The position numbers and the translations under genes were made by a program. The notes below the pieces were generated by a model. That model saw only the letters and a program-made list of their open reading frames with translations, was not told where the DNA came from and made no database searches. Positions 1,054 through 63,018 of a stretch of DNA of 64,000 nucleotides are shown one piece after another (within the stretch, counting starts at the first letter, position 1; each line of letters begins with the position of its first letter). Location: IMG/VR virus record IMGVR_UViG_3300031576_000022, positions 1 to 64,000 of that record. One strand, 5' to 3'. This stretch comes from a virus.

Positions 1054-1285
1054 CACCCGATTATTGTCGACAACTATCAGTCGTTGCTAGCGCGCGGAAT
1101 ATTTCCCCTACTGGGCATCCTTGTGGCGGCCCAGTTTTGTTTTTACGATATCTCGATATCGATATAGGATTGATTGGAGCGAGATGGAGTGATATCGGCA
1201 CTGGATTTGCTACGCGCGCGAGCTTATTGAATATATAGATGGATAGACGAGCGAGCGAGCGATGGAATGTATGAGAAAAATTTGA

Positions 1286-2428
1286 TTGCAAAACGATTTT
1301 GGTTTGATTATGATGGCGGGCATGGCTGAAGAATATATGATTCCGTCAAGGGATTTAGAATCTCCGTTTGTTCAGGCGATTATTAATGGTGCTGGAATTG
1401 ATATTGAATCTGTAAGAAAGGTTACGATTGTGTACGAGGCTGGATCATTTGCTACTGTGTATATTGAGATGTATTTTGATGGAGATATTGACAAGACATT
1501 TACAGATGAATATTATTTGAGGATCTTTAAGAAAGGTTTGATTGCAATCATAAAAACAAGCAAAAGTATGAATGGAGCATTAATGGTATGGACAGTAAGA
1601 CTGAGGTTGAAAAGATGATAGATCAAACGATTATGCATGAAAAAATTGCAATTGAAGATTCCAATCTACCATTTCTTGTTATAAGATTACGTGATGAATT
1701 TGCGAGGCTAGCAATGGTTGAATTAATTAGACTTGATGTTGTTTATGAAGAAATACCTGCGATTTCTTATAAAATAGCTGATGGAATGATAGCTACAAGA
1801 TTGATGTATCAATAATTGAAGCTTGATATTAAAAGTGATTCAATTAATTCTAGTGTTAAAAGTGAGCCACAGTGCCAGCATGAGTGGTATGATATAAGCA
1901 GAACAATGAGATGGATTGAATTTGATGTTAAGTATTTATGTAAGCTGTGCTGTGAAGAAGTAAAACACAGTGACTTACCGCCGTAAACATAGGTGGAATA
2001 ATGAATAGTAATCCAGGATTTAATGACATTATTGACATTGCTTACAGAAATAAGTTTAAAATAAAAAAGGTTAGTAGTAGTGAGCCCAATATCTATGGTT
2101 GGTATGTGGATGTATTTGAGATATGCGTGCCGAATAAAATGTCAAATCTGGCAATGGCGTTACTAAGGCCAAAACTTGAAGTTTTGGATGTTGATGCGAT
2201 ATTGAACGGCGAATTAAGGAGGATGTAGGCATGTCCAGTGATATCGAGAAAGCGAACGATATGATTATTGATAAGATTAAGAAAAATTTGATTATGTTGG
2301 TCGAATTGTCTGCGGTAGATCCTTCAGTTAAAGTTGATGCTATGAAACTTTTGTTTAAGGTTATTAAACAAGAAAAACGTGATATGATTTTGTATGGTAT
2401 ATCGTACATGGGACAACAAATTAAGTAG
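1286..2428 (+). CDS. run of small hypothetical genes (1286-1618, 1588-1815, 2001-2228, 2231-2428)
   Basis: Co-oriented, abutting or overlapping ORFs typical of a phage accessory region; no motifs recognised. Confidence 0.55.
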
Positions 2429-2463
2429 GATGTAGGCATGTTTATACATATGAGGTAATTGTA

Positions 2464-3054
2464 ATGGCAGTTAAGGCTTACCATGCAACGACGTTAGGTG
2501 GTGCTAAAGGCATTATAGAATCTGGTGTTTTTAATGCTGGTTGTTATTTTGCATTTGATATTGTGATTGCGTTAAGGTTTGCTGGACCAATCGTGTTTGA
2601 AGTTGAGTTCGATGAAAAACTATTTAGTGGTATGTCTGGCGATGAGGCATGGCAGTTTTGGTTGCGAGAAGATCTGATGGTTGATCGTTTAGTATCTAGG
2701 CATTGGACGGATGAGCATAATATGAAAGAAGATGACACTGTATTGGAGAATGGCGTCGAATATTTTAATAATAATATTCGTAGGTTGAGTATTATTGATG
2801 AAATAAAACAGGAAAGGTCTAATCAAATTAATAATGGTTACGATAGTAATCATGATGATAATCATACGGAAGGAGAAATAAGGAAAGCAGCTATTTGTTA
2901 CGCTATTTCATTTTATGATAAAGATGAAGCTGTTGATTGGTGGCCGTGGGATTCGTATCAGTTTAAACATAAAAAGACTGGTAGGGATGCTTTGATCGTT
3001 GCTGCTGCATTGCTCGTTGCTGAAATTGAAAGGCTCGATAGGATTGATATTTAA
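2464..3054 (+). CDS. two-domain protein: ADP-ribosyltransferase-like N-terminus plus conserved phage helical domain
   Basis: YHATT....GIIESG...GCYFA....A..FA...VFEVE (ART-like); ER..Q...GYD..HDD.H..GE...AA.CYA...WWPW....FK......L..AAALLVAEIERLDR. Confidence 0.55.
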   Translation: MAVKAYHATTLGGAKGIIESGVFNAGCYFAFDIVIALRFAGPIVFEVEFDEKLFSGMSGDEAWQFWLREDLMVDRLVSRHWTDEHNMKEDDTVLENGVEYFNNNIRRLSIIDEIKQERSNQINNGYDSNHDDNHTEGEIRKAAICYAISFYDKDEAVDWWPWDSYQFKHKKTGRDALIVAAALLVAEIERLDRIDI

Positions 3055-3114
3055 AATGATAAGATGAAGATGAAAAATGAGTGATAACCGCGAAGTTCGA
3101 TCCAACTCAAAAGT

Positions 3115-4984: not shown

Positions 4985-5232
4985 ACCAAATTTATTTTCA
5001 ACTGAAAACAGGATTGTGTTGACAAGAATTTATATCTAATGAAATACTTGTATACGGAAGGCCGGTGCGCGGATTTCAAGTTTACGACCATACAAAAACA
5101 CCAGACCTTTTCCCTACTGAGCCTTGTGTGATATAATATTGTTTGGAACCGTTTTGCCTTTTTATAATTTTATTTTATTTTTTAGGCAAAATATTGGCTG
5201 TTGTTGAATGAAAGCAAACAAAGGGGAGATTT

Positions 5233-5558: not shown

Positions 5559-6146
5559 ATGAGCAGTTTTGGTGGACCGGAGCTTGATAGTATTCCAGGG
5601 GCAAATGGAACTAATGGGACCAATGGTACTAATGGTACCAACGGAACTAATGGTACTAATGGAACTAATGGAACCAATGGCACTAATGGTGCCAACGGTA
5701 TGTCTATTTTTGCGATATATGAAGATCAAAAATCTGCTGGAACGGCTGGTGGCACATTTACTAGTGGTGCATGGCAGACTAGGGTTTTGAATACAGAAGT
5801 TACGGACTTATCTTCTTTGGGAACGCTTGCTGCAAATCAAGTTACATTAATTGCTGGTACATACTATGTTCAAGCCAGGGGTCCAAGACAACAGGTTGGT
5901 GCTTCTAAGCTTAGACTCCAAGATATTACGAATACTGTTACGTTAATTCTTGGATCAAGTGGGTTTGGTGGTGCAGTAGTTGCTCAAGGTGATGATTTTT
6001 TTGCTGGAAGATTTGTTTTATCTGGTCCAACTGCTGTAGAAGTTCAGCATATTTGTAGTGTAACTTCTGCTACGATTGGATTTGGAACTGCTGGCGGGTT
6101 TGGAATTGAAACTTATACTCAAGTTGTGTTTTTTAAGATTGCATAA
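5559..6146 (+). CDS. collagen-like (Gly-X-Y) fibre/spike protein with beta-sandwich head
   Basis: GAN(GTN)nGANG triplet repeat at about 5598-5700 followed by a beta-rich domain. Confidence 0.75.
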   Translation: MSSFGGPELDSIPGANGTNGTNGTNGTNGTNGTNGTNGTNGTNGANGMSIFAIYEDQKSAGTAGGTFTSGAWQTRVLNTEVTDLSSLGTLAANQVTLIAGTYYVQARGPRQQVGASKLRLQDITNTVTLILGSSGFGGAVVAQGDDFFAGRFVLSGPTAVEVQHICSVTSATIGFGTAGGFGIETYTQVVFFKIA

Positions 6147-6218: not shown

Positions 6219-6522
6219 ATGGTTGATTTTTTTTGTTTTTTTTATTGTAAATTAAAATAGATGTATTGGATTATTCGATATGGCCTTAATTTTCATTCAT
6301 TTTTTAAATTGAAAAATCGATTTGGATTGATATGATGGAGCCTGTTCGGGAAAAAATCGTAGGCAGTCTTGATTTGGGGTGCAAAAGATCCTTTAGGTTG
6401 GCCCAGGATCGACGATTCGACCTGATTGGACCTTGGATATATGTTGCAGCCCGATCGGCCTGGTAGGGAATGAGGGGCCTTTAGGCTTGCTTGACTCTTA
6501 TTTACTTGGAAAAGAGAAAACA

Positions 6523-6927
6523 ATGAACCAAAAAATTGATAATAATATATCAAAAAAAGATATAATGAATGATGGACGTCGTTTGTCTGGAATTTTATGT
6601 CCAAAATGTCGTGATGAATCGAGGGCATCTTATGTTGTTGATTCTCGTGGTCACCTTGGTGGAAAACATATAAGGCGTAGACGGAATTGTATGAAATGTT
6701 CGTATAGATTTACTACGTATGAGACGGTTGGTATTGTAGTTGGAGATATAAATTCTCTTTCTACTATTTCAAAAGAAAAATCATTTGAAATGCCAAGAAA
6801 AATAGCGGAAGAATTGGTTGTTGCTTTACAAAAATTTATTTTTAGTTTGGATGAACATGGTAATGGAAAAGATGTATTATATGTTCGCAAGCAAGGAAAT
6901 GAAAATAACCAAATAGGGGATGATTAA
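6523..6927 (+). CDS. NrdR-like Zn-ribbon protein without a recognisable ATP-cone
   Basis: CPKC....S.VVDSR...G..IRRRRNC.KC..RFTTYE matches the NrdR N-terminal domain; ATG 6523 chosen over TTG 6433. Confidence 0.75.
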   Translation: MNQKIDNNISKKDIMNDGRRLSGILCPKCRDESRASYVVDSRGHLGGKHIRRRRNCMKCSYRFTTYETVGIVVGDINSLSTISKEKSFEMPRKIAEELVVALQKFIFSLDEHGNGKDVLYVRKQGNENNQIGDD

Positions 6928-6929: not shown

Positions 6930-7427
6930 ATGATCATGCATTATTCTTTGGCGATTCCTGATTGTCGTGTTGCCGCTACTGGTGGGTTTGTTGGAACTGT
7001 TACTAGATTTGCTCCTAAATATTCTCCAAATGGTAATTATATTTTTTGGGGAGCTTCTGTTGGACTTAACGAGCTTTGGTTTCCGTGTTTTAATCTTCCG
7101 TTACTAAAATCGATTGGTGGTCCACAAAAATTATCTGTTTGGGTTACCTTGAGTAAGGGTAGCGATTTAAATCCAATTTTTATTGAAGTTTCTCTTAAGT
7201 ATAAAATGATATTTTCTGGTGGATTTCTAAATGAATTGGCTCCTATAGAAGATCCTATTACAATGGAAGAAAGAAATTATAGGATATATGACATATCTGT
7301 TTATTCACCTGAGATTGTATTTATACAAATAAGTAGAATTTCGTTGAAATTTAATATGAATGAAAGCGACGAAATAAGATTGCATGCTGCTTGGGTTGAA
7401 TATCAGGATGCTTTCTATAATATTTAA
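6930..7427 (+). CDS. beta-rich protein, paralog family member 1
   Basis: Ends SDEIRLHAAWVEY; aligns by eye with 7621-8220. Confidence 0.7.
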   Translation: MIMHYSLAIPDCRVAATGGFVGTVTRFAPKYSPNGNYIFWGASVGLNELWFPCFNLPLLKSIGGPQKLSVWVTLSKGSDLNPIFIEVSLKYKMIFSGGFLNELAPIEDPITMEERNYRIYDISVYSPEIVFIQISRISLKFNMNESDEIRLHAAWVEYQDAFYNI

Positions 7428-7620: not shown

Positions 7621-8220
7621 ATGACGCCCCCTCGTGCATCAACTAGATATAAAAATGACCATATTTTGCGTGCATGGTTTGCGATGGAAGGTGAACCGAG
7701 TGTTCCATTATTTTTTCAGCAAACAAGATTTGTTTCACTTCCGCTACGCGAAGCAAGGATTGCATCTACTAATGCATTGATTGGTGCTGCTACAGCTCCG
7801 TTATATGATGTAGCTCAAAACCGTATTGAATGGGCTGCTGGTACAGCTCCCGCTGCAATTTTTCTTCCGTGCGCTGGATTACCACTTTTGATTGGTAGAG
7901 GCTTTAATGCATTTACTTTGACAGGAATTTTTAGTAAGTCAAGCAATGTGGATGATATTACTCCTGTTACCGATCAAAAGTTAAGTTCATTTGTTATATC
8001 TGGAATTGGTCTTGCAATATTTACAAATACATTGGATACTGAAGAAGGGGTTCCTTTTATTGAATCAAGGCTTCTGTTGAGATCAACAAGTATTTCTCAG
8101 GGATTAAACATGACATCAACTGTTGGTGGTCAATTGAATTCAATTTCTCTTGATATAACTGCAAATCCAAGCGATGAAGTAAGATTGCATGCTATTTGGC
8201 TTGAATATAAGGTTGCTTAA
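7621..8220 (+). CDS. beta-rich protein, paralog family member 2
   Basis: AAAGGA RBS; ends SDEVRLHAIWLEY. Confidence 0.7.
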   Translation: MTPPRASTRYKNDHILRAWFAMEGEPSVPLFFQQTRFVSLPLREARIASTNALIGAATAPLYDVAQNRIEWAAGTAPAAIFLPCAGLPLLIGRGFNAFTLTGIFSKSSNVDDITPVTDQKLSSFVISGIGLAIFTNTLDTEEGVPFIESRLLLRSTSISQGLNMTSTVGGQLNSISLDITANPSDEVRLHAIWLEYKVA

Positions 8221-8938: not shown

Positions 8939-9181
8939 TTATCCTTCTTGACCTGGAATAATTTTTCCTGATCCATAATTTATATTGATTCTTTTTGTTG
9001 GTTTTTCAGATAATTGTTTTTCAAGAAATTCAATGCGAATCTTCATTGTGATATTTTCTATAATCAATTGATCAATATTTAATTCTGTAGGTAATCTGAT
9101 AGTATTAATAGATTTAAATACAAAATCCCCACCACATTTTGAACAATAAAAATATCCATCATTATCATTTATATTTGCCAT
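8939..9181 (-). CDS. small hypothetical protein with CxxC
   Basis: FYCSKCGG; a motif copy lies 12 nt upstream of the ATG. Confidence 0.5.
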   Translation of the reverse strand: MANINDNDGYFYCSKCGGDFVFKSINTIRLPTELNIDQLIIENITMKIRIEFLEKQLSEKPTKRININYGSGKIIPGQEG

Positions 9182-9394
9182 TACAGAAAGCGCTTTCCCC
9201 TACTGGGATACGAAGTTTTTATAGTCCTTAGATAACCATCCACAATTTTCGCATTTGGCTCTAATAATTCTTGGATTGTTTATCATTGTTTTTGCACGAA
9301 TTATTTTTCCACATATAGGGCATGATATTTTCAATGGATTCCAGACTATCATTGGCTCGCTACCACGAGCGGTTGCATTGCAGCCTCATCCCAA

Positions 9395-10222
9395 TTAATT
9401 ATCCTCCCAATCGTCGATTCCAATAACCTCAACCTTTCTTCTTATTTCATTTATTGTTGAATATAAAATTTGTCGGATTCTTTCTCTTGTTAATTCTGGT
9501 TTTATTTCTTTTGATATTTCCTTTAATGTCATTGATTGATGGTATCCAATTCCATATCTCATTTTTATTATTTTTTGTGTTCTCTCTGGAAGATTATTTA
9601 TAAGTTTAGCAACTTCGTGTATACATTCAGATGACATTATATTTTTTAGTGTAGTATTTCCTTCTGATGGTTCATGAATTATATTGTCAGTAGATACTAC
9701 AGTATGTACAGAATTAGCTTGTATAATTGCATTAATTGTAGAATGTGTTATCTTGCATCCCTTTCCTATTGCATATGGAATCATTGGTTTGATTGCTAAG
9801 TTATGATCTCCTCGTGCAGATAGTATATTTTTTATTTTTTCTATTCTTTTTCTGATAAATTGCATATAAGATGGAACTCTAATTCTTCCAGAAGATTCAA
9901 TTGCTCTTAATATTTTTTGTGTAATCCATAATGTTGCATAAGTTGAAAATTTAAATCCTGCGCTTGGATTAAATTTTCTTATTGCATTAAATAATCCAAT
10001 ATTTCCTTCTGATATTAAATCTTCAAAAAGAACACCTTTTCCTATATATTTTTTTGCTATAAGTATTACAAGGCGAAGGTTTGATGTAATTAATTTATTT
10101 CTTGCTTCAATATCACCAGATAACGACCTAAGTGAAAGTGATACTTCTTCTTCTTTTGTAAGTAGTTTATATTTTGATATTTCTTTAAAATATAAAAAAA
10201 TATCAATTTGAAGTTTACTCAT
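9395..10222 (-). CDS. RNA polymerase sigma-70 family factor (RpoD/RpoS-like, no region 1.1)
   Basis: LLTKEEE (1.2), NLRLVILIAKKY..EDLISEGNIGL..KF.P..GFKFSTYATLWI (2), IRVP, TLKEI...LTRERIRQI (4.2). Confidence 0.92.
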   Translation of the reverse strand: MSKLQIDIFLYFKEISKYKLLTKEEEVSLSLRSLSGDIEARNKLITSNLRLVILIAKKYIGKGVLFEDLISEGNIGLFNAIRKFNPSAGFKFSTYATLWITQKILRAIESSGRIRVPSYMQFIRKRIEKIKNILSARGDHNLAIKPMIPYAIGKGCKITHSTINAIIQANSVHTVVSTDNIIHEPSEGNTTLKNIMSSECIHEVAKLINNLPERTQKIIKMRYGIGYHQSMTLKEISKEIKPELTRERIRQILYSTINEIRRKVEVIGIDDWEDN

Positions 10223-10566: not shown

Positions 10567-10964
10567 CGGTGGACCTGCGGGAGAATTGAACTCCCGGTCT
10601 CATGATATTCTGCCTTAAAGCTCTCGTTCACGCTTATAGCACATTCGGTTTGGTGTTTATTTTAAATTTAGCGCCGATAGGCACCGCTAAATTGTTGCTG
10701 CTTTAACGTGCTCATCGGGTTATCGCAGCGACCCGAATCATTTTTCCGTGCTGAATTATGCATTGTTCCGATCGCACGGTTTCGGACAATACATCGCTTG
10801 CTGCGGATTAGGCAGCGACGGCCACAAAAGCGCGAGCGCTTCCGGGGCCAGCGAGCAGATTGTCGTTCTTGGCAATTATTGGTTCTCCGGGTGATTTACG
10901 AGGCCAACCGGAATCCTCGAAGCGCGAGCTTGGGCATTATATCTGATCGATCCCTTTCAGGCCC
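10567..10964 (-). ncRNA. ssrA: tmRNA (one-piece)
   Basis: 5' GGGCCTG pairs with 3' CAGGTCC-A-CCG with G3:U wobble; T-arm GGGAG-TTCAATT-CTCCC; tag ORF 10873-10808 AKNDNLLAGPGSARAFVAVAA-stop. Confidence 0.92.
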
Positions 10965-10979
10965 ATTTATTGCATTTAC

Positions 10980-11008: not shown

Positions 11009-11036
11009 CGATTCATTCGAATTTTTTAATTTCGGT

Positions 11037-52523: not shown

Positions 52524-54956
52524 TTATTCGACTCCAACACCAAGGTTTGGATTCATAACTTCTGATTCAACACTAATTATTGTGTTCATTGATTTAAGAT
52601 CAAATTGAATTGCAACAATAATACAAGCGGAAAATGGTTCTGGAGTAAAGTCTAGTCTATCTACTATACCAAAAATTGAATTTCCAGGTTTATATGCGAT
52701 ACTGATTGTTGGAATTCTTGCTCTCATAGAGATTATTGGAACAGTAAAATATGGTATATCTGAATCAATATCTAATCCCATTTTTATTTTTTCTGCTATA
52801 CTATAACTAGCCAAGCTTGGACTTGCTATTGCTGTTGCACCAGCCTTTGCTTGTTCTGGACTTACTGATGTTGTTGTATCGATTGCATTTACAATATCAA
52901 TTCTGTATTTTTTTCCATCTACCCACCTTCTTCCAGACATCATTGTTCCAATTTTTCCAATAGAAAATAGTCCTCTTTTTATAACAAGTCCAGCTTGATC
53001 ATGTTCTACTGCTCCAATTACCATTGGAGCTAAAAACGAAATTTTATTTGTTTTTGGATCAATAGTAACATTAACCATATTTAAATCGCCACTTTCTAAA
53101 AAAATACCAGATCTATCTTCAAGAATTCTAACGCTTCCTTTTTTTGATCCGAATGGATAAAAATCTTTTCCATCTTTCTTAATTGTAGATTTATCTTTAT
53201 CTATTGTTTCTCTTAAATCTATGTTTTCTGATACAAAATCTACAGCTAGTTGGGCTTCTTTTGTTTGTCCTGGACTAAATTTTGGAAAGTATGTTTTTGG
53301 TGGAGATGGATCGCCAGATTTTGCTGTAGCAATATTTCTTGAAAGAAATGGTCTAGGTTTAATCATATATGTAGATCCATTTACCTTGAATAATGTAGGA
53401 ATAAAATTAAATGGATCTCTTTTTTCATCTTTTGTTGTTGTAATCAATCCCGTTTCATCTGTAATCCATCTTCTCATGGTCGAAAAAAATGAATCTTGAC
53501 CTTTGAGTTTAATCGCTTCATCTTCTGCAAGATTATTGATACGAATTTTTATCATATTGTTTTGAAGTCTTTGCCATTCATATCTTGTAGATTTTCCCGT
53601 TGATTCTCCATCAATAAATGTTCCAGACATTCCTTCAAGTTTTATTTGATCATTGCCTGTTGTTGCGTCGGCTACAGATACTTTTTTGATAATTTCAAAC
53701 CATACTTCACTTGTCCATCCCTTTCTAAGATAGAATGCATTTTGTACACGAATGTTTTGTGTTGTTCCAATTAATGCACCAATTACTTGTGTATAGTCTA
53801 CGTTTATATCAATATCATCAATATTCCATTTTTCTTTATTAACAAGTGGATATGCGAGTGGTCCGGTGGATGCAATATTATAAAGTCCTACTGGCATTCC
53901 ACTTCCACCTGATCCCATAAATATTTTTATAGCTTTTGTTGCTAATCCAGTTCTCCATACATTAAGTATTGAAGCTGATTCTGTTGGTTCAAGCCACCAA
54001 TTATATCCAACAGATTGACATATTTTAGTAATTGCATCTGTTGCCCTTAATCCTTGAATGTCAATAGTTTCTGGATACAAATCATCCATCCCGGTTGGAG
54101 GCCCTAGTATTATTCTTTTTGTTTCTACAAATATATCTTCTACTGGTGCGCCACCACCAAATGGGCCTGCGTCAGCAACCGCATCTTCAAATGAATATGG
54201 TGGTGAATAACAATAAAACATTACATATTTTATCATATCCCATGCAGACCATGCAATATTTCTATCTGCTGGTGGCGCCCCACCAAAACTTTTTATGTTT
54301 AATGCAAAATAATCTCCATCAAAAATTATTTCTGGTAAAATTCCAAATGAATCTCCTGCTCCGACTGCTGGAGATTTTCTTCCATTTCCGTGTGGTGATA
54401 TAATACCAAAATGTGACCATGATGATTCTGCTAGTTTAGAAAATGTTCGATCGTTGAATACACATGGAAGTCCAGTAAACCATCCAGATCCAGCACCATA
54501 TATCCCGCCAGATACAGCTTCAGTACCATCATCATCTGCTTGAATGCCAACTTGACCTATAATAATTTCTCTGTATAAGTCATATTTATAATCAACACAT
54601 TTTAATATAATTGTTTCATCTTTTGAATCATCCGATCCACCAGACGCTCTTAACGATTGAGCCATTATGTATCCACTGAAAAGTATGCTTTTAGTACCAT
54701 CAGACAATGATGCGGAGATAGCTATTTCTGTTCCAACTGCTAAAAATTCAGATCCAAGATATGTGTCTTTATCTATTCTATTTTCAACTATTTCAATTTC
54801 TGCTGTTGAAAATTCGCTATTTCTTTTCCAATTAACATTACCAGCCTTTACATAGAATCCCAATAATGAATCTTTTGCTATAACAGTAATAATTGGTAAA
54901 TCTATTTTACCATCTTTATCAACAAATCCAACCGTATCTGTTATTGAGAATGACAT
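52524..54956 (-). CDS. probable baseplate hub/tail tip protein
   Basis: ILFSGYI....IILKCVDYK..L, DAITKICQSVGYNWW, YKPGNSI patterns typical of hub proteins. Confidence 0.55.
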   Translation of the reverse strand: MSFSITDTVGFVDKDGKIDLPIITVIAKDSLLGFYVKAGNVNWKRNSEFSTAEIEIVENRIDKDTYLGSEFLAVGTEIAISASLSDGTKSILFSGYIMAQSLRASGGSDDSKDETIILKCVDYKYDLYREIIIGQVGIQADDDGTEAVSGGIYGAGSGWFTGLPCVFNDRTFSKLAESSWSHFGIISPHGNGRKSPAVGAGDSFGILPEIIFDGDYFALNIKSFGGAPPADRNIAWSAWDMIKYVMFYCYSPPYSFEDAVADAGPFGGGAPVEDIFVETKRIILGPPTGMDDLYPETIDIQGLRATDAITKICQSVGYNWWLEPTESASILNVWRTGLATKAIKIFMGSGGSGMPVGLYNIASTGPLAYPLVNKEKWNIDDIDINVDYTQVIGALIGTTQNIRVQNAFYLRKGWTSEVWFEIIKKVSVADATTGNDQIKLEGMSGTFIDGESTGKSTRYEWQRLQNNMIKIRINNLAEDEAIKLKGQDSFFSTMRRWITDETGLITTTKDEKRDPFNFIPTLFKVNGSTYMIKPRPFLSRNIATAKSGDPSPPKTYFPKFSPGQTKEAQLAVDFVSENIDLRETIDKDKSTIKKDGKDFYPFGSKKGSVRILEDRSGIFLESGDLNMVNVTIDPKTNKISFLAPMVIGAVEHDQAGLVIKRGLFSIGKIGTMMSGRRWVDGKKYRIDIVNAIDTTTSVSPEQAKAGATAIASPSLASYSIAEKIKMGLDIDSDIPYFTVPIISMRARIPTISIAYKPGNSIFGIVDRLDFTPEPFSACIIVAIQFDLKSMNTIISVESEVMNPNLGVGVE

Positions 54957-54968
54957 GTTATTGTATAC

Positions 54969-57446
54969 CTAACATGGATTGCCTTTAAGGCCGAGCGGAT
55001 TTGATGGTTTTGTTGCATCTGGTGTAAATCTTACTACAAATGGATTTCTTGTTTCAAAATCTCCGTCATCAGACATAACTCTAGCAACAGCATAATGTGG
55101 AATTTCTGAAAATGGACCAACAGTAGTTGATGTTAAAAAAAAGGTTTGGTCATATCCAATCTGATGAAATGGAATAAACATTGTTACGATAGGTGGTCCA
55201 GTAAAATCGGCAGGAACATTTTGTTCAAACATCCATATTTGTACGCTATTTCCAATCGCTGGCTCACGAAATGCTTTATAAATGGCTGAAAATTCAATAA
55301 ATCCATTTGGCTTAAGTGTTACAGTGAATTGTGATACTGGATTTGGTTGTGGTCCAATGAGCTTAAGTATTCCTGGCGAATCTTCAATAACAGTTATATC
55401 AAGTCTGTTTTCAAAATTACCGTCTTCTGTTATTCCATTACTGGCTCTAATTACAAATCTCCATATTCCAGGAGTCATTAGTATAATAAATCCAGGGATT
55501 GCTCCGGTTGCTGCTGGTACTGTAAAATCTGGAAATTCAAGCGTACCATTATTGTGGTATAGGTTGTATGTAGTAACTGATGGGCTTGGACTTGAACTTG
55601 ATGATACGGTTCCAAATAATCCTGTAAAAGATATTGTCATCCCGGTAGGGGCAATGATCATTTCTGGAATGATAAATGCTGTTGGATTATTTGATTCTGA
55701 TGTAAGCAGATTAATTAATTGAGATGAAATTAATATTGGTTGTGGTATGATAAAAGTAATTATTGGTCCAACAAATCCATCGATTCCTTTTCCTGGACTT
55801 GCTTCACCCCATACCCTTACATCTGTTGGTGCTATTGGTCCTGGAGCAGAAACAAATGCTGATATATTGTTTATTGTAAGAGCAAAATCTGTTCCATCGT
55901 ATGAGGCACGGATTATGTTGATTTCTTCAAGAATTATTGGTAATACCGTTAATTTCATTCCTGATCCAGTATATATACGTGCAATGATTGCATATCCTGT
56001 GTTATAATCATTATCTGGTGTCTCAAAGAATTCATTTGAAAATTTTGCAGCTATTAATTCAAAAAAACTCTCAAATGAAAATATTTTTGTATATGTAGTT
56101 GTAGCGAAACTATCTAATGGTAATGTTGTTGGAGCGCTTCTTAGTAGTACAGACATATAAATATCAAATTCTTGGCCTACACCGATCCATGAACCAGGCA
56201 CAGACCCATCAAGGTTAAATGATGCACCCTGAAGTTCAATTCCTGCACCATGATTAATCCCTTCGTAAACAAATATTGGTCTATTAGCTAGTATAGGTTG
56301 ATTAATATTTGTTATTAATGAACCCTTGCTATCTATTCTTGCTACTCTATCCTGATCATTTTCTATTTGAATTGTTCCAGCAAGATCTGTAAAAGTATTT
56401 GCTGGGTCAACTGGATCAAACCATGTTCTAGGTAAAAAATCTGCAAATGTAATAGAATCTCCAATGTTTCCTGCTATATCTTTCGATCTAAGTCTAAAAC
56501 GATATGCACCTTGAATTAATTGTGCTGTCGTATATTCGGTAGCTCCTGGCTGGATACTATCAAATTGAATATATGGTGCTCCATCTTTTGATATTTCAAT
56601 AATAATTGCTGCATATCCATCTCTAATTAAAAAATGATTCCATTTTAAATGTATTCGATTTGATGGACAATATTCAAGAATACCGCGCGCCTCAAGCTCG
56701 CGTCCTTCTAGTGAAACCCTTGATCCAGATATTGCAGCGCTGAACGTACTGCGCTGAACTCCAAGTATTTGTTCATCAAAATCAATTATAAATTTGAATA
56801 TATTATGAAACGATATGATACCATCAAGTAGATCATATGCTATTGCAGATGATCCGGTTAATCCGTTTGCAACAATGGGATCGTCCCATAATGTCATATC
56901 TGATGTTAAATCAAACCTCATGTGTCCGTTTTCAATTCCAACAAATTCAACAGCACCTACACGAGTATTTCCACCAGATATTGTAAACGATAATTTATAT
57001 TGATCTCCAAGAGAAGAAGATAGTTTCATTAAAATACTAAACCAACCACCACCAAGTGAAGTTATTGTTTGTACTGAATTAAAACTATTTGTTTCGTTTA
57101 TTCCAATACCTGTTAATTCAAGTTCTGTAAAGAATTGAACGATATCTGGATTATCACGACGAAATATTGAAGCTGTAAATATAGAAAATCCTCCAGTATC
57201 TTCAACTTCGAATGAAATAAAAATATCAATAGGAGTAAACTGAATATTTTTTGTTTGACGGTATTGACCATTTTTAAATAAGTGTGTTAGGTGCTCGAAT
57301 CGTGGAACACCAAGCCAAATACGAATAGATGAAGATACTTTGTCAATCAATCTCATATCAAGGAATGGAACATTTGGTGGAAATCCAGGAAGATTTTCCG
57401 GTAAGAACCTTCCAAGCGGATTTCCTAAACGTCTACCAGCATGCAT
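54969..57446 (-). CDS. multi-domain virion protein with FN3 and LamG-like domains
   Basis: GAYRFRLRSKDIAGN and YNLY...WRFVIRASNG (FN3); TWFDP.D....DRVARIDSKG...Q.....RP. Confidence 0.7.
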   Translation of the reverse strand: MHAGRRLGNPLGRFLPENLPGFPPNVPFLDMRLIDKVSSSIRIWLGVPRFEHLTHLFKNGQYRQTKNIQFTPIDIFISFEVEDTGGFSIFTASIFRRDNPDIVQFFTELELTGIGINETNSFNSVQTITSLGGGWFSILMKLSSSLGDQYKLSFTISGGNTRVGAVEFVGIENGHMRFDLTSDMTLWDDPIVANGLTGSSAIAYDLLDGIISFHNIFKFIIDFDEQILGVQRSTFSAAISGSRVSLEGRELEARGILEYCPSNRIHLKWNHFLIRDGYAAIIIEISKDGAPYIQFDSIQPGATEYTTAQLIQGAYRFRLRSKDIAGNIGDSITFADFLPRTWFDPVDPANTFTDLAGTIQIENDQDRVARIDSKGSLITNINQPILANRPIFVYEGINHGAGIELQGASFNLDGSVPGSWIGVGQEFDIYMSVLLRSAPTTLPLDSFATTTYTKIFSFESFFELIAAKFSNEFFETPDNDYNTGYAIIARIYTGSGMKLTVLPIILEEINIIRASYDGTDFALTINNISAFVSAPGPIAPTDVRVWGEASPGKGIDGFVGPIITFIIPQPILISSQLINLLTSESNNPTAFIIPEMIIAPTGMTISFTGLFGTVSSSSSPSPSVTTYNLYHNNGTLEFPDFTVPAATGAIPGFIILMTPGIWRFVIRASNGITEDGNFENRLDITVIEDSPGILKLIGPQPNPVSQFTVTLKPNGFIEFSAIYKAFREPAIGNSVQIWMFEQNVPADFTGPPIVTMFIPFHQIGYDQTFFLTSTTVGPFSEIPHYAVARVMSDDGDFETRNPFVVRFTPDATKPSNPLGLKGNPC

Positions 57447-57456: not shown

Positions 57457-57696
57457 CTATTTACTGGTTTCAGTTTTATCGCATGAGACTGATTGAATCG
57501 AATGTTTTGGTATAATCATTAATTCTGATTCTATAATTGATATCTCATATCTTGTAACAAACCTAAGTATTCCTGATGCTATTTTATCGCCTCCATACCT
57601 AACAATGACCCTTTTCCCTACCAAGCTAATGAACAAATCAAGATTGTATAAATTTTTTTTATGTTTTTTATCTATTGGTTTCTTTTCAGTTGACAT
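57457..57696 (-). CDS. Hfq/Sm-like RNA-binding protein
   Basis: GKRVIVRY..D...SGILRFVTRYEI.I (Sm1) and MIIPKHSIQSV (Sm2; compare Hfq VYKHAISTV). Confidence 0.65.
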   Translation of the reverse strand: MSTEKKPIDKKHKKNLYNLDLFISLVGKRVIVRYGGDKIASGILRFVTRYEISIIESELMIIPKHSIQSVSCDKTETSK

Positions 57697-58129: not shown

Positions 58130-58171
58130 CGATCGAGGTTACGTATCTTGCCTCCGGGGAGAGGTCAGACA

Positions 58172-61100
58172 ATGGATAAGATCGCATCTGATGGCGTGTC
58201 TGTCAATTATGAATCACGGTTTTCTCGTGTCAGGGATGATGTGGAGACACTGTTGGCGCGTGATCCTGTTGGAGTAATTTTTAGTTTATTAAGTTGCCAT
58301 ATATCTAGTATAGAACGTCCAAATGGTACGCTTAGTATATGGGGTATGACGTGTCCATGGTGTAATGGAGGCGGCAATAAAGAATCATCGCCACTTTTTT
58401 TATCGAGTCATGGAAGAAAGAAGCTTCATTGTGAGAAATGTGGTAAGTCTGAATCTATTGTTTTTTTATTTATAGAACAACATGGACTTTCATTAAAATC
58501 TAATATTGGGCTATGTTCAGAAAAGCTTGCTAATGCTGCTGGTGTGAGTTCTCATGACGAATATATAAAACAAAGAGCTACAGGAAGGTTTACTGATGAT
58601 TTTATAATTGATATGGATGATAATCCGGTACAGGCGCAGGGACGAATTTTCTCCCCTACTGGGACTATGCCTCAAGATAAAAAGAATTGGATAATTAGAG
58701 GTATAGAATTTTTTTTAAATAGGGCTGATTTAGGAGAATTGAGCAAACAAGAATCTGTAGCTATTTCATATGTTATGAAACGTGGTATATCACAGAATAC
58801 TATTAGAAGCTGTAAACTATTTACTAGTATAAATTCAAACAAAATAATGGTTGTAATGCCATCATATGATTGTAACAAAGATTTAGTTGGATATCAATGG
58901 TTTGATTATGCTAATGTTGATAAGAATGGTAAAGCTGAATATCGTGCATGTAAAAATGAATTTGGTAGTTGTAGATTTCCGTTTGGGATGGAGGATTGTG
59001 TAGGAAATAATAATCCAATACTTATGGTTTGTGGGTTCTTTGATTATTTATCTGCTAAAGAAATTGGATTTGATAATGTACTTAGTCCATTTGGAACCAA
59101 TATGTTATCTACTGATTGTTCTCATATAAAAGATGTAGTAAATGGAAGGTCTGTTTCTATTTTATTTGATAGACAGATTCAAGAATTAGATCAATCTTTA
59201 TTGGTGGCAGAATCATTAAGAAAAGTTGGTGCAAAAGTAAACATATTATTATGGATGAAAGGAAAGGAAGGATTTGATTTTAATGATTTTTTGTTGGGAT
59301 GTAGAAAGAAAAACATAGAAAATCCTAGAGAATTTATTGGTAGTTTGATTAAAGATGGTATGATCAGGTTGATTAAACATGGTAAAAATATAGATATTGA
59401 TCAGATTATTAAAGATTCTGGTATTGAGATTGGTTCATATATAATGCGTGGCTCATGGCCTGCATCTAATATTATCGTAAAAAATCAAGAAAAACAATTA
59501 TCAAACATTGATATATCTAAAAATGTTCATGGTAGGGGAAAAGGTGCTAGCTTCGAGCCTGATTTAGAAAAGGCCATATCTGGATTATCTCCAATGGGAG
59601 AATTTCATACTTTAATTATGTTTACAGACATTCATTCACGATTTGAAATGTGTACTGTTCTTGATGTTAAGAGATGTGCATTGAGCGATAATTGTGGTTG
59701 CGCTGTTAACAATAGGTTAGATATATCAGATGGAAAATATTCATCTGCTTTTGTTAACAATACAAAGATGTTACCAGCAATAGAATCAATTAATGAAAGT
59801 TTCCAGTTTTTATGTCCAAATTCAAAAGGTTGGGATAAAAAGGAACCCAAAAAAATACTATATAAGGCTTCAACCAAATCAAATACGTGGTCTATTATTC
59901 ATGCTAGATCATTATTTTCAAGTAGTTCAAAAATTAATATGGTTACAGATATTAGTGATATAAGAACAGGTATATATGAGGTATATGGTTATAAATCAAA
60001 TCATTGTGGTATGACCGGATCTGTATTTGTAATAAAAGAAATGAAACCATATACGATTGAATCAGTTCTTCAGTCGATGCCACATGAAGAATCAAATTCT
60101 ACTGAAATAGATTTTTTTGATGGGGTATCTGTTATATTAGATTCTGGAATGATAGGTACCCCAGATATGATTTTTATTTCAACTGTTTGTGTATGGGCTT
60201 TTAGTCCTCCTGTTATTCCATTAATTAAAGATATTGGTAAAGATATAATTAATCACAGGCAACCATCTCTTTCTATTTATGCTATTGGTGATCCTGCAAC
60301 CGGAAAAACAAATACAATTAGAGAAGTGTCGGAACTTGCTGGACATAGATGTGATCCAACTGATGCAAAAATGGCTACAAAGCCTGGTTTGGTTATTAGT
60401 GGTGCTGATGGGTCTCCAGGTCAGATGCCAAGATCCATTGGACGTGCAATGGGGCTTGATGAGATTACTGATAGAAAATCTGTATTAGAAGTTATTCAGT
60501 TACTTGTTGAGAATCGCGTTTCTATTTCAATGAGTGGAAGAAATATAGACGAAGTTGTACCAGTAAGAATTGCATTACTTAGTAATGCAAATGCTGAAAG
60601 AAAAAAACTACATGAATTTAGAACTCCAATGGAAGCAGCATCAGATTTAATTAAAGAACATCTTATTCGTAGAATAGATATGTGTGTAGCTACTATTAGT
60701 TTATCTAGTGAGGTTGATATAGATGAAAGAAATACGAATATATATCGTAAAGATATTAATATAAATATTGATAGAAATTATTTGATAAATCTTGGGAAAA
60801 GATGTTGGAGACAAAATCCAAAAAATATTATTGTTGATGATGTAGCCATAGAATTTCTTTCTGATGAAAAAAACATTATATCAAAGATAGATCATATTCG
60901 TACTGGAAATCCAATGATGTATGGTGATATTTCTCAGCGTATATTTAGAATCGCATGTGGGATAGCTGGATTCTCTGGATCTTTCAGTGGTGAAAATATG
61001 ATCGTAAAAATTAATCATATTATGTATGCGATATTATTGATGAATGAAATGATGGATACTATGGGTGCATCTAAGGAAGCTAGGTTTCATATGAGAACAA

Positions 61101-61489
61101 TGGATGTTGAAGGTGCGTATAAAGTTCTTGTTGATGTTTGTACAGAAGCTTTGAGTATGATGGATTCTACACAGGATTCTATGATGTATGCCGGAAAGGT
61201 AATTATTGCTTTTATTCAGACATGTAATGCTCACGATCCAGGATCGTTTGTTGATACTGGCATCAAAGAATTACATAGAGATTTGAAAGATTCCAAGAGT
61301 GAAGCATTATCTTCTGAAAGAAAATTAGCACCATATAAACGTGCATGGAAAATTATAGATAGAATGAAGAGAAATGGATTAATTAAATCTGAAGGACATG
61401 GATCATATTCTATTACTGAAACATTTGCAAGGTCTGTTTCGATTATGGAAACTGATGCGCCTGTTATTTACAAGAAAATACTTGAATAG
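58172..61489 (+). CDS. Zn-finger/TOPRIM primase-like domain fused to MCM-like AAA+ helicase
   Basis: CPWC..HCEKC; Y...RGI; VCGFFDYLS, FDFNDFL; IGDPATGKT, ATKPGL, MGLDEI, LSNAN, LIRRID. Confidence 0.82.
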   Translation: MDKIASDGVSVNYESRFSRVRDDVETLLARDPVGVIFSLLSCHISSIERPNGTLSIWGMTCPWCNGGGNKESSPLFLSSHGRKKLHCEKCGKSESIVFLFIEQHGLSLKSNIGLCSEKLANAAGVSSHDEYIKQRATGRFTDDFIIDMDDNPVQAQGRIFSPTGTMPQDKKNWIIRGIEFFLNRADLGELSKQESVAISYVMKRGISQNTIRSCKLFTSINSNKIMVVMPSYDCNKDLVGYQWFDYANVDKNGKAEYRACKNEFGSCRFPFGMEDCVGNNNPILMVCGFFDYLSAKEIGFDNVLSPFGTNMLSTDCSHIKDVVNGRSVSILFDRQIQELDQSLLVAESLRKVGAKVNILLWMKGKEGFDFNDFLLGCRKKNIENPREFIGSLIKDGMIRLIKHGKNIDIDQIIKDSGIEIGSYIMRGSWPASNIIVKNQEKQLSNIDISKNVHGRGKGASFEPDLEKAISGLSPMGEFHTLIMFTDIHSRFEMCTVLDVKRCALSDNCGCAVNNRLDISDGKYSSAFVNNTKMLPAIESINESFQFLCPNSKGWDKKEPKKILYKASTKSNTWSIIHARSLFSSSSKINMVTDISDIRTGIYEVYGYKSNHCGMTGSVFVIKEMKPYTIESVLQSMPHEESNSTEIDFFDGVSVILDSGMIGTPDMIFISTVCVWAFSPPVIPLIKDIGKDIINHRQPSLSIYAIGDPATGKTNTIREVSELAGHRCDPTDAKMATKPGLVISGADGSPGQMPRSIGRAMGLDEITDRKSVLEVIQLLVENRVSISMSGRNIDEVVPVRIALLSNANAERKKLHEFRTPMEAASDLIKEHLIRRIDMCVATISLSSEVDIDERNTNIYRKDININIDRNYLINLGKRCWRQNPKNIIVDDVAIEFLSDEKNIISKIDHIRTGNPMMYGDISQRIFRIACGIAGFSGSFSGENMIVKINHIMYAILLMNEMMDTMGASKEARFHMRTMDVEGAYKVLVDVCTEALSMMDSTQDSMMYAGKVIIAFIQTCNAHDPGSFVDTGIKELHRDLKDSKSEALSSERKLAPYKRAWKIIDRMKRNGLIKSEGHGSYSITETFARSVSIMETDAPVIYKKILE

Positions 61490-61509
61490 TTTTAATTGTT
61501 TTTTCCGTA

Positions 61510-61810
61510 TTCCTGGTCAAATCCTTGAAATCCCGGTTAAGTCCCGTGGAGCTAAGTTCATATGGACAAACGATTTACGTTCCAAATCCCGAAATCCCGG
61601 GGTTCCCGAAAAAATGAAGCCGTCCATTTTGGGCGCGTACCTGATCCTACCTATATATGTAATATTTTATTACAAATACAGTTACATACGTGGGTACCTA
61701 TTTTTAATAAGGGAATTCGGGATTTCCGGGATTTGAAGGATTTTGCTGGCGCCTTTCGAAAAGCGTCAGCAAAATAGCACTATGTTATCCCGGGAACACC
61801 CGGGAACACG
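61510..61810. repeat. origin-like region: inverted iteron-like repeats around an AT-rich core
   Basis: AAATCCYG-like repeats at 61519-61596, GGATTT repeats at 61718-61744, AT-rich 61652-61710, CCCGGGAACAC twice at 61789-61809. Confidence 0.6.
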
Positions 61811-61901
61811 ATCAGCCCGAGAATTATTCATGAGATCCTATTGTAAATTACACCAGGAAAAGTGCAGTATAATTAAGAATGAAAATCGTCAAGGGGATTA
61901 C

Positions 61902-62438
61902 ATGCTTGTATGTTTGTCATGTTTGCGAGAAGAAAATATTGCAAAAAGAAAATATGAAGAAATCTTAATTAATAAAATTGAAAAATCTACACCAATCAAT
62001 TATGAAGAAATATATTCAAAAAATCAATCAATTAAAAGAAAAAGATATCGTCGTGATAAAATTAGGAAGGGTACCGTTGAGTATTGTTTATATTCTATTT
62101 TTTCTAATGTGATCAGTAGATCAAAACTTACCGGAATTCCTACAGACATTGATCATGAATATTTAAAAGAATTATTAAGAGTTCAAAACAATAAATGTGC
62201 AATAACAGGATTAGATTTAGAATTTGAGTCTGGTTCCATTAAAAATAAAAATAAAAGAAAAATCAGTCTTGATCGTATAGATTCTAGCAAATTTTATTTA
62301 AAGGACAATGTATGGTTCGTATGCTGGTTCGTTAATCAATTGAAAAATAATCTATCAATTGATGATCTTATATTTTTTGCTAGGTGTGTAGTAAGAAAAT
62401 TTGGTGAAAATAACGGAGATCAGTCTTATGTCCCGTAA
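61902..62438 (+). CDS. HNH-like homing endonuclease
   Basis: QNNKCAITG...SLDRIDSSK.Y..DNV.FVC..VN..K. Confidence 0.8.
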   Translation: MLVCLSCLREENIAKRKYEEILINKIEKSTPINYEEIYSKNQSIKRKRYRRDKIRKGTVEYCLYSIFSNVISRSKLTGIPTDIDHEYLKELLRVQNNKCAITGLDLEFESGSIKNKNKRKISLDRIDSSKFYLKDNVWFVCWFVNQLKNNLSIDDLIFFARCVVRKFGENNGDQSYVP

Positions 62439-63018
62439 CGATAGTTCCGATCTATTGATTAGTTATATAGCTGCTATAGGATCTATGTTAGTCGATGACG
62501 ATCCGGTTCGGTCAGATGAAGCTATGGCTTGGATTTATACCTTACATGTCGTAGGCAAGCCCTGGATCGTTGGGGCGCTTGACGAAGGGGTTAGCGTTAG
62601 TGTAATGGTCAAGTCGATAGGGAGCTTGTCTAGGGCTATTCTTCGTCCATCAGCAATTATAATCCATGAAAAGGATGCGACTTATTCTCATCTCGGGAAT
62701 CTACTTCCCTACGGGGAATTATTGCGTGCAGTTTTAAGTAATTTCAATGCATTAATAATTGCAAGCGAAGAAACTGCTAGTATATTTAGACGCGGTCCAG
62801 ATCCTCAACCTTGGATTGTTGATTGGAATGATCCGCGAGGTAATCCAGTAAAATGTGCAATTGATGATGGTATTATTTCAAGAGAAAATTGTGAAGAAAA
62901 ATTTAAAAAATATATTCATAATATGAAGCATAGCCCTATTAGCGAAGGAAAACGCAAGCAGTTCTTGATGGATGCATCTCGTGCCTGTCCGTTGACTATT
63001 GAAAAAAAAATCTATTGA
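62428..63018 (+). CDS. hypothetical protein
   Basis: Overlaps upstream gene; contains a motif copy. Confidence 0.55.
   Translation: MSRNDSSDLLISYIAAIGSMLVDDDPVRSDEAMAWIYTLHVVGKPWIVGALDEGVSVSVMVKSIGSLSRAILRPSAIIIHEKDATYSHLGNLLPYGELLRAVLSNFNALIIASEETASIFRRGPDPQPWIVDWNDPRGNPVKCAIDDGIISRENCEEKFKKYIHNMKHSPISEGKRKQFLMDASRACPLTIEKKIY

Follow-up and report, generated by a model that had tools for sequence, protein, structure and literature searches.

A long, strand-biased motif repeated along an uncultured phage genome looks like a DNA-handling signal rather than a gene switch

Introduction

Some phages carry localized nicks in their DNA, a phenomenon known for ~50 years whose function is still unknown. 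What defines a nick motif is a ligatable single-strand break (3'-OH/5'-P) in virion DNA at the motif. Phage tf has two convergent transcription units, yet all of its nicks are in the top strand, at the consensus TACTRTGMC; by our re-count 14 of 14 sites lie on one strand, which for a 46-kb genome amounts to 1 per 3.3 kb. In Rembedalsseter the one-strand count is 13 of 13, and the 61-phage cluster to which it belongs shows a strand excess averaging 9.0; motifs of the tf type are located in coding sequence in 88% of cases. In phiKMV, a Pseudomonas podovirus in which all genes run in one direction, the motif is present on one strand only (3/3), and each of the three copies occupies a short non-coding stretch annotated as a promoter feature, where it coincides with an annotated putative phage promoter. 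The nick-associated class is the only experimentally established set of phage motifs that follows the strand and not transcription.

Here we describe a repeated motif in IMG/VR record IMGVR_UViG_3300031576_000022, which is 86,248 bp long and ~80% complete. The window denotes positions 1–64,000 of this record, the 64,000-nucleotide stretch in which a first-pass annotation had reported the motif.

Results

A position matrix iterated over the whole 86,248-bp record with a site threshold of at least 14 bits gives 28 motif sites, 23 on the + strand and 5 on the − strand, a density of 1 per 3.1 kb. Twenty-two of these (17 +, 5 −) fall in the window, the first at 1102 and the last ending at 62717, and they match the copy and strand counts of the first-pass annotation exactly (Table 1); 6 more, all +, are found between 64 and 86 kb. 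The annotated length of 15 bp was an underestimate, as the conserved word spans −16 to +9 relative to CCTAC, ~26–27 nt, and reads A-N5-RRNCC-TTTYC-CCTAC-YRRGM. The literal sequence YTTYYCCTACYRRGM has 12 matches in the window (10 +, 2 −) where 0.01 are expected, and the maximum in 100 dinucleotide shuffles was 1. In the codon-preserving comparison that the annotation had proposed, a 20-nt matrix at ≥12 bits yielded 30 hits, whereas 300 shuffles of synonymous codons and intergenic sequence averaged 4.6 and never exceeded 10. The higher-GC insertion at 20.4–24.4 kb contains zero copies, in agreement with the earlier statement that the insertion sequence (IS) is free of the motif.

The motif is, as first described, not palindromic: its position counts are asymmetric, and a partial CCC-N4-GGG symmetry is broken by the common TGAGC variant. 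No Watson-Crick covariation was detected among 595 column pairs. A short upstream hairpin is possible at about 10 of the 28 copies and is not a consistent feature (own versus swapped flanks, p=0.11), and one flank association was found, between positions −8 and +10. Rfam models gave no match at motif sites in the window, where the sole hit is a tmRNA at 10567–10964. No motif enrichment was found in IMG/VR. A scan of 185,579 prokaryote species, each represented by a single genome, gave 89 matching stretches, and the motif was enriched in none of them. In the Logan assembly of the source sample, one 72.6-kb contig spans 20 kb of the record. We regard the motif as confirmed.

The annotation had held that copies are not confined to one strand. 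This is correct for 5 of the 28 and understates the bias, since the other 23 lie on a single strand (binomial p=0.0009), the one with the genome-wide G/T excess. Transcription has no such influence, as the annotation had noted: the pyrimidine strand is coding at 13 sites, template at 14 and ambiguous at 1, and + copies predominate both in + gene blocks (11–12 + versus 3 −) and in − gene blocks (11 + versus 2 −). The sites are also more evenly spaced than expected, with a gap CV of 0.58 versus 0.97 for random placement (P=0.0011, 28 sites), a window-only CV of 0.48 (P=0.0001) and no gap below 877 bp.

Sixteen to 17 of the 28 sites are non-coding, compared with a non-coding fraction of ≤20% (P=1.5e-5 to 2.6e-6), and many copies fill tiny intergenic gaps. 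Because most copies are non-coding, the constraint acts on the nucleotides, as originally proposed. In the 11 in-gene copies, 5 of them antisense, the reading frames stay open and the word is made through codon choice. These copies had been said to occupy different frames, which holds only in part: 5 of 6 sense copies share one frame, (S/A)-P-T-(G/E), and a second frame is common to 3 of the 5 antisense copies. The 79-aa ORF that hosts one antisense copy had been labelled Hfq-like, a label we drop as Pfam gives nothing at E≤0.05. Promoter-like sites are not enriched (77 versus 91.5, 55 versus 57.6 and 82 versus 95.7 expected), and only 1 of the 7 with 11/12 matches overlaps a motif copy.

Compositional skew on the + strand has the same sign in genes of both directions, third codon positions being richer in G than in C and in T than in A. 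In the 40 + genes GC3 skew is +0.385 and AT3 skew −0.226; in the 34 − genes the values are +0.171 and −0.029. Intergenic GC skew is +0.14. Cumulative skew climbs across the window, and at third positions GC skew stays above zero in all segments out to 86 kb. To judge from skew alone in an incomplete record, this pattern fits one-way replication in which + would be the leading-strand sequence and the lagging-strand template. The motif does not simply follow from the skew, being C-rich on a strand that is rich in G.

The one relative available for comparison, L009 (capsid 66% identical, GC 58%), also carries the motif, with 3 sites at ≥12 bits, all +, versus 0.18 expected (P=0.0015). Their spacing is 3.2 and 3.9 kb, and their locations are not orthologous to those in the record. 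CTA Leu codons form the basis of two of them, which fall within conserved segments of TerL and the protease. The L009 intergenic spacers orthologous to motif-bearing gaps lack the motif, whereas L009 genes carry it. Several small gaps in the record consist mostly of a motif copy, and the same gaps are shorter or absent in L009. Because the L009 copies are similarly spaced at non-orthologous places, density rather than position appears to matter.

The record encodes several candidate nucleases, comprising two clear HNH genes, one weak HNH match and one EndoVII-like gene. Of the four candidate readers named by the annotation, the ParB-like protein, a sigma-70 family protein and an NrdR zinc-ribbon protein are encoded, and no RHH protein was found among the proteins scanned; the nucleases add to these candidates. 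The 1113-aa gene is a weak primase/helicase-like match.

Table 1 Motif copies and candidate genes in the window.
Positions	Strand	Feature	Evidence
1097–1116	+	Motif; core CCTAC 1107–1111, non-coding gap	matrix
5103–5122	+	Motif; non-coding, extended −10-like TGATATAAT 15 nt downstream	
9189–9208	+	Motif; non-coding, 17 nt upstream of ATG of minus-strand gene 8939–9181	
11799–11818	+	Motif; within ParB-like gene, sense, SPTE	
16280–16299	+	Motif; in spacer of TTGACC-17-TATAAT promoter-like site (16279–16307), after terminator-like hairpin	
18554–18573	−	Motif; 43-nt gap preceding portal gene	
24444–24463	+	Motif; non-coding, ahead of protease-fusion gene	
26618–26637	+	Motif; CCTACAGGGA variant, non-coding, past protease gene	
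28189–28208	−	Motif; non-coding, past capsid gene	
32546–32565	+	Motif; within 1285-aa tape-measure-size gene, sense, SPTG	
37772–37791	+	Motif; 43-nt gap	
41002–41021	+	Motif; convergent gap separating + block from − block	
43149–43168	+	Motif; 37-nt gap in minus-strand block, immediately upstream of GTG 43147	
44625–44644	+	Motif; within RecD2/ExoV-like gene, antisense, SPVGE	
45590–45609	+	Motif; non-coding, upstream of RecD2-like gene	
48781–48800	−	Motif; within 413-aa gene (weak Mu Gam match), sense, SPTG	
52176–52195	+	Motif; non-coding, upstream of GTG 52172 (minus-strand gene)	
55640–55659	−	Motif; within 825-aa gene, sense, APTG	
57607–57626	+	Motif; within putative 79-aa minus-strand ORF, antisense, SLVGK	
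58645–58664	+	Motif; within 1113-aa primase/helicase-like gene, sense, SPTG	
59527–59546	−	Motif; within 1113-aa primase/helicase-like gene, antisense	
62698–62717	+	Motif; CCTACGGGGA variant, within 205-aa ORF, sense, LPYGE	
6458–6477	−	Weak copy, core 6463, outside the 28	13.2 bits
45066–45085	−	Weak copy, core 45071, outside the 28	11.7 bits
150–575	+	HNH endonuclease, candidate trans-acting nuclease	PF01844, E 1.3e-7
47178–47651	−	HNH endonuclease, candidate	phrog_2255, E 1.4e-10
61743–62438	+	Endonuclease VII/HNH-like, candidate	phrog_3322, E 3e-21
11083–12297	+	ParB-like protein, 404 aa, candidate reader	phrog_1033, E 2.7e-18

Discussion

Our best guess, at a probability of about 0.3, is that the motif is a strand-specific nick site as in T5, tf/LUZ24-like and phiKMV-like phages. 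The phage would encode a sequence-specific DNA enzyme that recognizes the motif and acts on one strand, most likely a nickase that would leave localized single-strand interruptions in virion DNA. The ~27-bp one-sided site would be read as duplex DNA, with + as the preferred strand and sites maintained ~3 kb apart along the whole chromosome. We infer the protein that reads the motif, the nick as its outcome and the gene for the enzyme, for which the two HNH genes and the EndoVII-like gene of Table 1 are candidates. Several lines of evidence suggest this reading: the sites follow the strand and not transcription, as do the nick motifs of tf, Rembedalsseter and phiKMV; their spacing is more even than random; the relative retains density and not positions; the phiKMV-type motif resembles ours; and nuclease candidates are encoded.

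The resemblance to the phiKMV-type motif (5'-CGACNNNNNCCTACTCCGG-3') is that of a long, bipartite, asymmetric and non-coding site with a pyrimidine run followed by CCTACT, the shared core being YCCCTACT, e.g. CGACCCTTCCCTACTCCGG. The two phages are unrelated, and the likeness has limits: the right half is TCCGG in phiKMV and TGGGM here, and phiKMV has 3 copies per 42.5 kb versus 28 per 86 kb. Our full 20-nt matrix leaves the phiKMV sites outside its top 8 in phiKMV, whereas the left-half matrix ranks a phiKMV site 2 and a shorter version gives rank 8. The motif of tf, LUZ24-like phages and Rembedalsseter (TACTRTGMC, WACTRTGAC) is near ours in density, strand-specific in a genome with convergent transcription units and kept across diverged relatives; its sequence likeness is partial (TACTG-G-C). 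It differs in being 9–10 nt long with unconserved flanks, in the invariant T after TACTR, which is R here, in not being enriched outside genes and in clustering in one half of the genome, where our sites are evenly spaced.

Some observations argue against a nick site. Five of the 28 copies are on the opposite strand, whereas the known nicked phages all have their copies on one strand, and the predominance of non-coding sites has no parallel in tf-type motifs. The motif also fits neither of the two nick consensus families scanned, in line with the first-pass annotation, which had given the tf consensus correctly and found no clean match: in the window TACTRTGMC has 0 hits and the phiKMV-type consensus 0 hits even with 3 mismatches. 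Phages commonly encode HNH proteins, and no HNH gene here has a link to the motif; a ligase gene was not found in the ~80% complete record.

Somewhat more doubtful is a replication-linked polar element, after Chi/KOPS or a Tus-Ter barrier, that would be read either on the strand left single-stranded by a rightward fork or in relation to that strand. Such an element could act in preferred lagging-strand priming or replisome loading, as a fork barrier enforcing one-way replication, or in Chi-like protection of a rolling-circle tail. The motif strand is the strand with the genome-wide skew that is independent of gene direction, the rising cumulative skew fits one-way replication, and the skew does not account for a motif that is C-rich. 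Chi, KOPS and Tus-Ter likewise show a partial strand bias tied to the replication strand at regular density; in E. coli, Chi is about 75% on the leading strand and occurs 1 per roughly 5 kb, comparable to the 82% bias and ~3 kb spacing here. Ter sites, at ~23 bp, asymmetric and read by a monomer, are like the motif as well but are few and arranged as a trap. Neither PolA nor PolB was found in the ~80% complete record, which has a weakly matching primase/helicase-like gene; host replication proteins are probably recruited by the phage. Some DnaG primases prefer CTA, and the invariant CTA with its 10–13-nt pyrimidine run would template a purine-rich primer of ordinary length. However, primase sites are 3–5 nt and Chi and KOPS, which belong to host-encoded systems, are 5–8 nt, far shorter than a 27-nt phage word, and no phage is known to use a priming or polar guide sequence of 27 nt. 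The motif also lacks a hairpin of the kind seen in plasmid single-strand initiation signals, and the direction of replication is read from skew in an incomplete record. A further step, which we consider doubtful, is that this is a 27-bp strand-polar phage architecture word, ~3 kb apart and co-oriented with one-way replication, for which there is no described counterpart. Such a word would set replisome priming or loading on the lagging-strand template, with the invariant CTA starting a purine-rich primer copied from the pyrimidine run, or would form a polar barrier forcing one-way forks.

It is unlikely that the motif is a dispersed asymmetric operator, after L5 stoperators or P1 C1 operators, at which a bound monomer represses or blocks transcription genome-wide. 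The L5 and cluster A stoperators are similar in that >20 asymmetric sites, all read by one protein, are distributed genome-wide, many in short intergenic spaces; they are 13-mers and in L5 are located in promoters as well. The size and asymmetry of our motif are within the operator range. The excess of non-coding sites, the tiny gene gaps they fill, the copy in the promoter-like spacer at 16279–16307 and the copy just upstream of an extended −10 would all suit an operator. Yet PMC9283540 states that stoperator orientation strikingly follows transcription and that reversal abolishes repression, whereas orientation here is 13:14; silencing, one of the annotation's options, is not supported in its stoperator form. 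Also against an operator are the 11 in-gene sites with their 5 antisense copies, the single overlap among seven strong promoter-like sites with no enrichment of such sites, and the orthologous L009 spacers that lack the motif while L009 genes carry it. L5 is temperate with an immunity repressor; here no integrase was found in the ~80% complete record, and no cI-type repressor was recognisable in the genes scanned, which include some of the small ORFs.

Less likely again are architectural or partition loading sites, at which loading of the ParB-like protein, or of a packaged DNA-binding protein, would serve to condense, segregate or organise the chromosome. The 404-aa ParB-like protein is encoded, its own gene carries a motif copy, spacing is even, and the dispersed centromere sites of phage N15 are a precedent. 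ParB-type HTH dimers bind palindromes, though, and the asymmetric position counts here are not those of a parS-type site; a purely architectural site needs neither asymmetry nor strand bias, and ParA was not identified in the genes scanned.

That the motif is a selfish REP-like or MITE-like element, a short interspersed repeat that invades intergenic gaps, is very improbable: small gaps made mostly of motif that are shorter or absent in L009, a reverse strand that reads GTAG beside a G-rich run and possible stem as in short extragenic REP elements with RAYT, and a flank association (−8/+10) that hints at copy lineages are outweighed by the inconsistent hairpin without covariation, the lack of any RAYT (Y1) transposase (in the 86-kb record PF01797 has no match at E≤1), in-gene copies built by codon choice in open frames, an even spacing and a strand bias that a parasite would not be expected to show, and the absence of enrichment in any of the 89 matching stretches from prokaryote genomes.

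The motif has the appearance of a DNA-handling signal, for instance a nick site, and not of a gene switch. If it is a nick mark, localized nicking would reach as far as an uncultured, deeply divergent phage of low GC content from a cave metagenome. Even spacing and skew co-orientation are unreported in known nick cases, as is, apart from the phiKMV type, a long bipartite site, and these properties point to a mechanical or replicative role. If it is not a nick site, it would be a polar genome-organising signal of a kind new to viruses. A strand bias that is independent of transcription, combined with even spacing, provides a search criterion for mining metagenomic phage genomes.

Gene content of the phage

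The window covers positions 1-64000 of an 86,248-bp IMG/VR virus record. The record is classed as linear and ~80% complete, and all runs containing it are labelled cave metagenome. The window is tailed phage DNA with a GC content of 33-48%, and its assigned genes are collected in the table below together with motif or nick-consensus positions in other sequences. Pfam models gave no match to PolA, PolB, ATP ligase, integrase, type IB topoisomerase or Y1 transposase in the 86-kb record, and a PDB sequence search with the primase-like and ParB-like proteins returned nothing useful.

Annotated genes of the window, motif matches in the related contig L009 and nick-consensus sites in phage phiKMV
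Sequence	Feature	Position	Strand
Window	HNH endonuclease	150-575	
Window	NrdR-type zinc ribbon	6433-6927	
Window	Sigma-70 family protein	9395-10222	
Window	ParB-like protein	11083-12297	
Window	Large terminase	16776-18272	
Window	Portal	18580-20364	
Window	Protease fusion	24486-26603	
Window	Major capsid	27165-28085	
Window	Tape-measure-size gene, 1285 aa	32322-36179	
Window	RecD2/ExoV-like helicase	43185-45572	-
Window	AAA_24 ATPase		-
Window	Weak Mu Gam match		-
Window	Primase/helicase, weak match	58148-61489	
Window	ERCC4-type and RNase H-like nucleases, an HNH nuclease (47178-47651) and an EndoVII-like nuclease (61743-62438)		
L009	Motif matches	4, 3189, 7083	+
phiKMV	Nick-consensus sites	6314-6332, 13986-14004, 24128-24146	

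Several further features were seen in the window. ORFs of 513, 810 and 825 aa at 50631-57446 (minus strand) are without Pfam or PHROG match; leads from ESM Atlas hint that the 810-aa protein has a tail hub or gpD/VgrG-like fold and that the 825-aa protein has lectin-type (Laminin_G_3) domains. If these leads are right, tail genes would lie on the minus strand, apart from the head module. A full-length match to the tmRNA model Rfam RF00023 (100.6 bits, model 1-374 of 374) is found at 10567-10964 on the minus strand; ARAGORN called neither a tRNA nor a tmRNA anywhere in the window, and the plus-strand ORF at 10708-11040 that overlaps the match has negative coding potential. The ORF at 5559-6146 contains ten tandem 9-nt repeat units (5586-5707) and matches Pfam Collagen below threshold (22.9 bits versus a cut-off of 27.2), and the genes at 6930-7427 and 7621-8220 are a paralogous pair. 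The ribosome-binding-site and start region AATTAAGGAGGATGTAGGCATG is duplicated at 2201-2234 and 2408-2441, which points to two small plus-strand genes and shows that canonical Shine-Dalgarno sites are used by the host; the minus-strand ORF at 2071-2484 is probably spurious.

Between the portal and protease genes lies an insertion (20424-24345) whose GC content of 0.48 is higher than that of its surroundings and whose borders both carry ATCGGTTTGGT. In L009, a diverged related contig, the corresponding interval is only 142 nt long. The insertion encodes a 370-aa ORF without assigned function, an N6_N4 DNA methylase and an IS1-like DDE transposase, and the 370-aa ORF may form a restriction-modification pair with the adjoining methylase.

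A dispersed DNA word around CCTAC

The first-pass annotation had noted a 15-nt motif with 22 copies in the window, 17 on the plus and 5 on the minus strand. The literal 15-nt pattern has 12 matches versus 0.01 expected, and an iterated matrix arrived at the same copy numbers on each strand. Over the whole record the matrix finds 28 sites at or above 14 bits, 23 plus and 5 minus, with two further weaker copies, both minus-strand, below this set. The excess also holds against a shuffle that keeps protein sequences and codon usage and shuffles each intergenic gap (30 observed, whereas 300 trials averaged 4.6 and never exceeded 10), and the sole sizeable dispersed repeat that a repeat finder returned for the window was the motif family (D3 and D4 in its output).

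Position counts, numbered relative to CCTAC, place the start of conservation at an A at -16 (21/28 sites), followed by RR at -10/-9, CC at -7/-6, TTT at -5 to -3 and then YC. Within the core the second position is C in 27/28 sites and the remaining four positions are invariant; to its right come Y, R, R, an invariant G at +8 and M at +9. The motif is a duplex DNA word, and neither a structure nor a protein motif. An upstream purine run can pair with the pyrimidine run in ~10 of the 28 copies, and an upstream hairpin of the REP-like, ssDNA or RNA kind was rejected on comparing own with swapped flanks (p=0.11); mutual information across 595 column pairs revealed no Watson-Crick covariation among motif-site columns, and the sites have no Rfam match. 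IS ends were likewise rejected, as there is no inverted copy near the IS1-like gene and the insertion contains zero copies.

Coding context and spacing of the copies

Coding-potential scoring assigns 16 motif sites to non-coding DNA, and a 17th, at 16290, lies in a promoter-like spacer directly after a terminator-like hairpin. For comparison, no more than 20% of the DNA is non-coding (P=1.5e-5). The hosts of the 11 in-gene copies are the longest genes or small ORFs. Five of the six sense copies are read in one frame, as (S/A)-P-T-(G/E), and three of the five antisense copies share another; this preference would arise because the other frames give stop codons. Gaps between copies average 3.1 kb in the whole record and vary less than under random placement (CV 0.58 versus 0.97, P=0.0011), as they do in the window (CV 0.48, P=0.0001), and the smallest is 877 bp. 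Minus-strand copies did not act significantly as fillers between plus-strand copies (P=0.08 and 0.19).

Orientation and possible functions

Motif orientation is independent of transcription: the strand on which the motif reads as CCTAC coincides with the coding strand at 13 sites and with the template strand at 14, one further site lies in a convergent gap, and the plus-strand bias is the same in plus and minus gene blocks. Orientation tracks the chromosome strand (23/28 on plus, p=0.0009). Among documented phage motifs, those associated with nicks are, to our knowledge, alone in being strand-specific regardless of transcription. The reading that ranks highest, tentatively and with a probability of roughly 0.3, is that the copies mark sites where a phage nuclease would nick one particular strand. 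In the assembled contigs of the source sample a single contig spans the whole 20 kb compared, an observation that does not bear on nicks. According to PMC3517423, the tf nick motif TACT/RTGMC is in the top strand in 14/14 cases in a genome with convergent units, and our re-count of the tf sites also gave 14/14. PMC11780129 gives 13/13 for WACTRTGAC in Rembedalsseter, and describes a motif of this type kept in 61 phages, with 88% of copies coding and function unknown. For the phiKMV-like phages, the published nick consensus is CGACNNNNNCCTACTCCGG. The three consensus sites of phiKMV (NC_005045), for example CGACCCTTCCCTACTCCGG, coincide exactly with the record's three features labelled 'putative bacteriophage specific promoter', and they have a pyrimidine run and CCTACT in common with the motif here.

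Likeness to the known nick motifs is limited, because the tf and phiKMV consensus sequences have zero occurrences in the window, the full motif matrix leaves the phiKMV sites outside its top 8, the tf flanks are without conservation, unlike those here, and 5 of the 28 sites are on the other strand, unlike the tf and Rembedalsseter sets. With left-half matrices one phiKMV site ranks second and, in the shorter version, another ranks eighth. Nothing relevant on a phage nickase making localized nicks was found among the literature matches listed.

The copies might instead be a putative replication-linked polar element, such as a priming or loading site, a polar barrier or a Chi-like signal, a reading that we rank only slightly below nick sites. 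Whichever way the genes run, their third codon positions show G>C and T>A on the plus strand (GC3 skew +0.385 in 40 plus genes and +0.171 in 34 minus genes; AT3 skew -0.226 and -0.029, respectively), intergenic DNA has the same asymmetry, and cumulative GC skew climbs across the window. Because this skew is independent of gene direction, the record as a whole resembles a single 'leading' strand, and it is the G-rich strand that carries the C-rich motif.

Readings as a binding site fare less well. A putative dispersed operator is improbable, since stoperators, as described in PMC9283540, fail on orientation; a putative architectural or ParB-type loading site is less probable again, parS failing on symmetry. 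That the motif is a selfish repeat is very hard to credit, as REP/RAYT fails both on the hairpin and on the transposase, with RAYT absent from the record. Part of the probability falls to none of these readings. A promoter for host sigma-70 or a phage sigma was rejected on the 13:14 orientation relative to transcription; -10-like hexamers stand at variable distance downstream (+12 to +26 in 7/28 sites, with roughly 4 expected as estimated by eye), and promoter-like sites are not enriched. Type IB topoisomerase sites (YCCTT sub-word) and tyrosine recombinase sites were rejected because PF01028 and a tyrosine recombinase, respectively, are absent from the record.

Distribution of the motif among relatives and in other genomes

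The phage is very isolated. Megablast of a 16-kb stretch against 50,697 phage records gave no match, tblastn found only capsids of <31% identity, the 810-aa protein had no tblastn match, and neither single-protein scans of IMG/VR nor genome_contigs yielded relatives. Alignment scans recovered L009 (also L014; 9.8 kb, GC 58%) as the sole related contig, with capsid 66% and terminase 57-59% identical; five closer capsid homologues (P0002-P0006) are encoded on contigs that reach 39 kb. The first-pass annotation had proposed looking for the motif in relatives, and L009 indeed has three matrix matches of at least 12 bits, all plus, where block shuffles lead one to expect 0.06 on plus and 0.12 on minus (P=0.0015). 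Two of the three are inside conserved terminase and protease segments, where the core is a CTA Leu codon in both; the orthologous codons of this phage form no motif, and the L009 orthologues of the motif-bearing intergenic gaps here are shorter and without it.

A 17-nt version of the motif occurs in IMG/VR on one unrelated contig, at chance level. A search of 185,579 prokaryote species, each represented by a single genome, gave 89 stretches with one exact match each; loose copies number one in 83 of them and two in 6, and none of the 89 is enriched. A host origin of the motif is conceivable.

The finding is real and unusual. The motif is lineage-specific, and between this phage and L009 its density and strand are kept but its position is not, which argues against gene-specific regulation.
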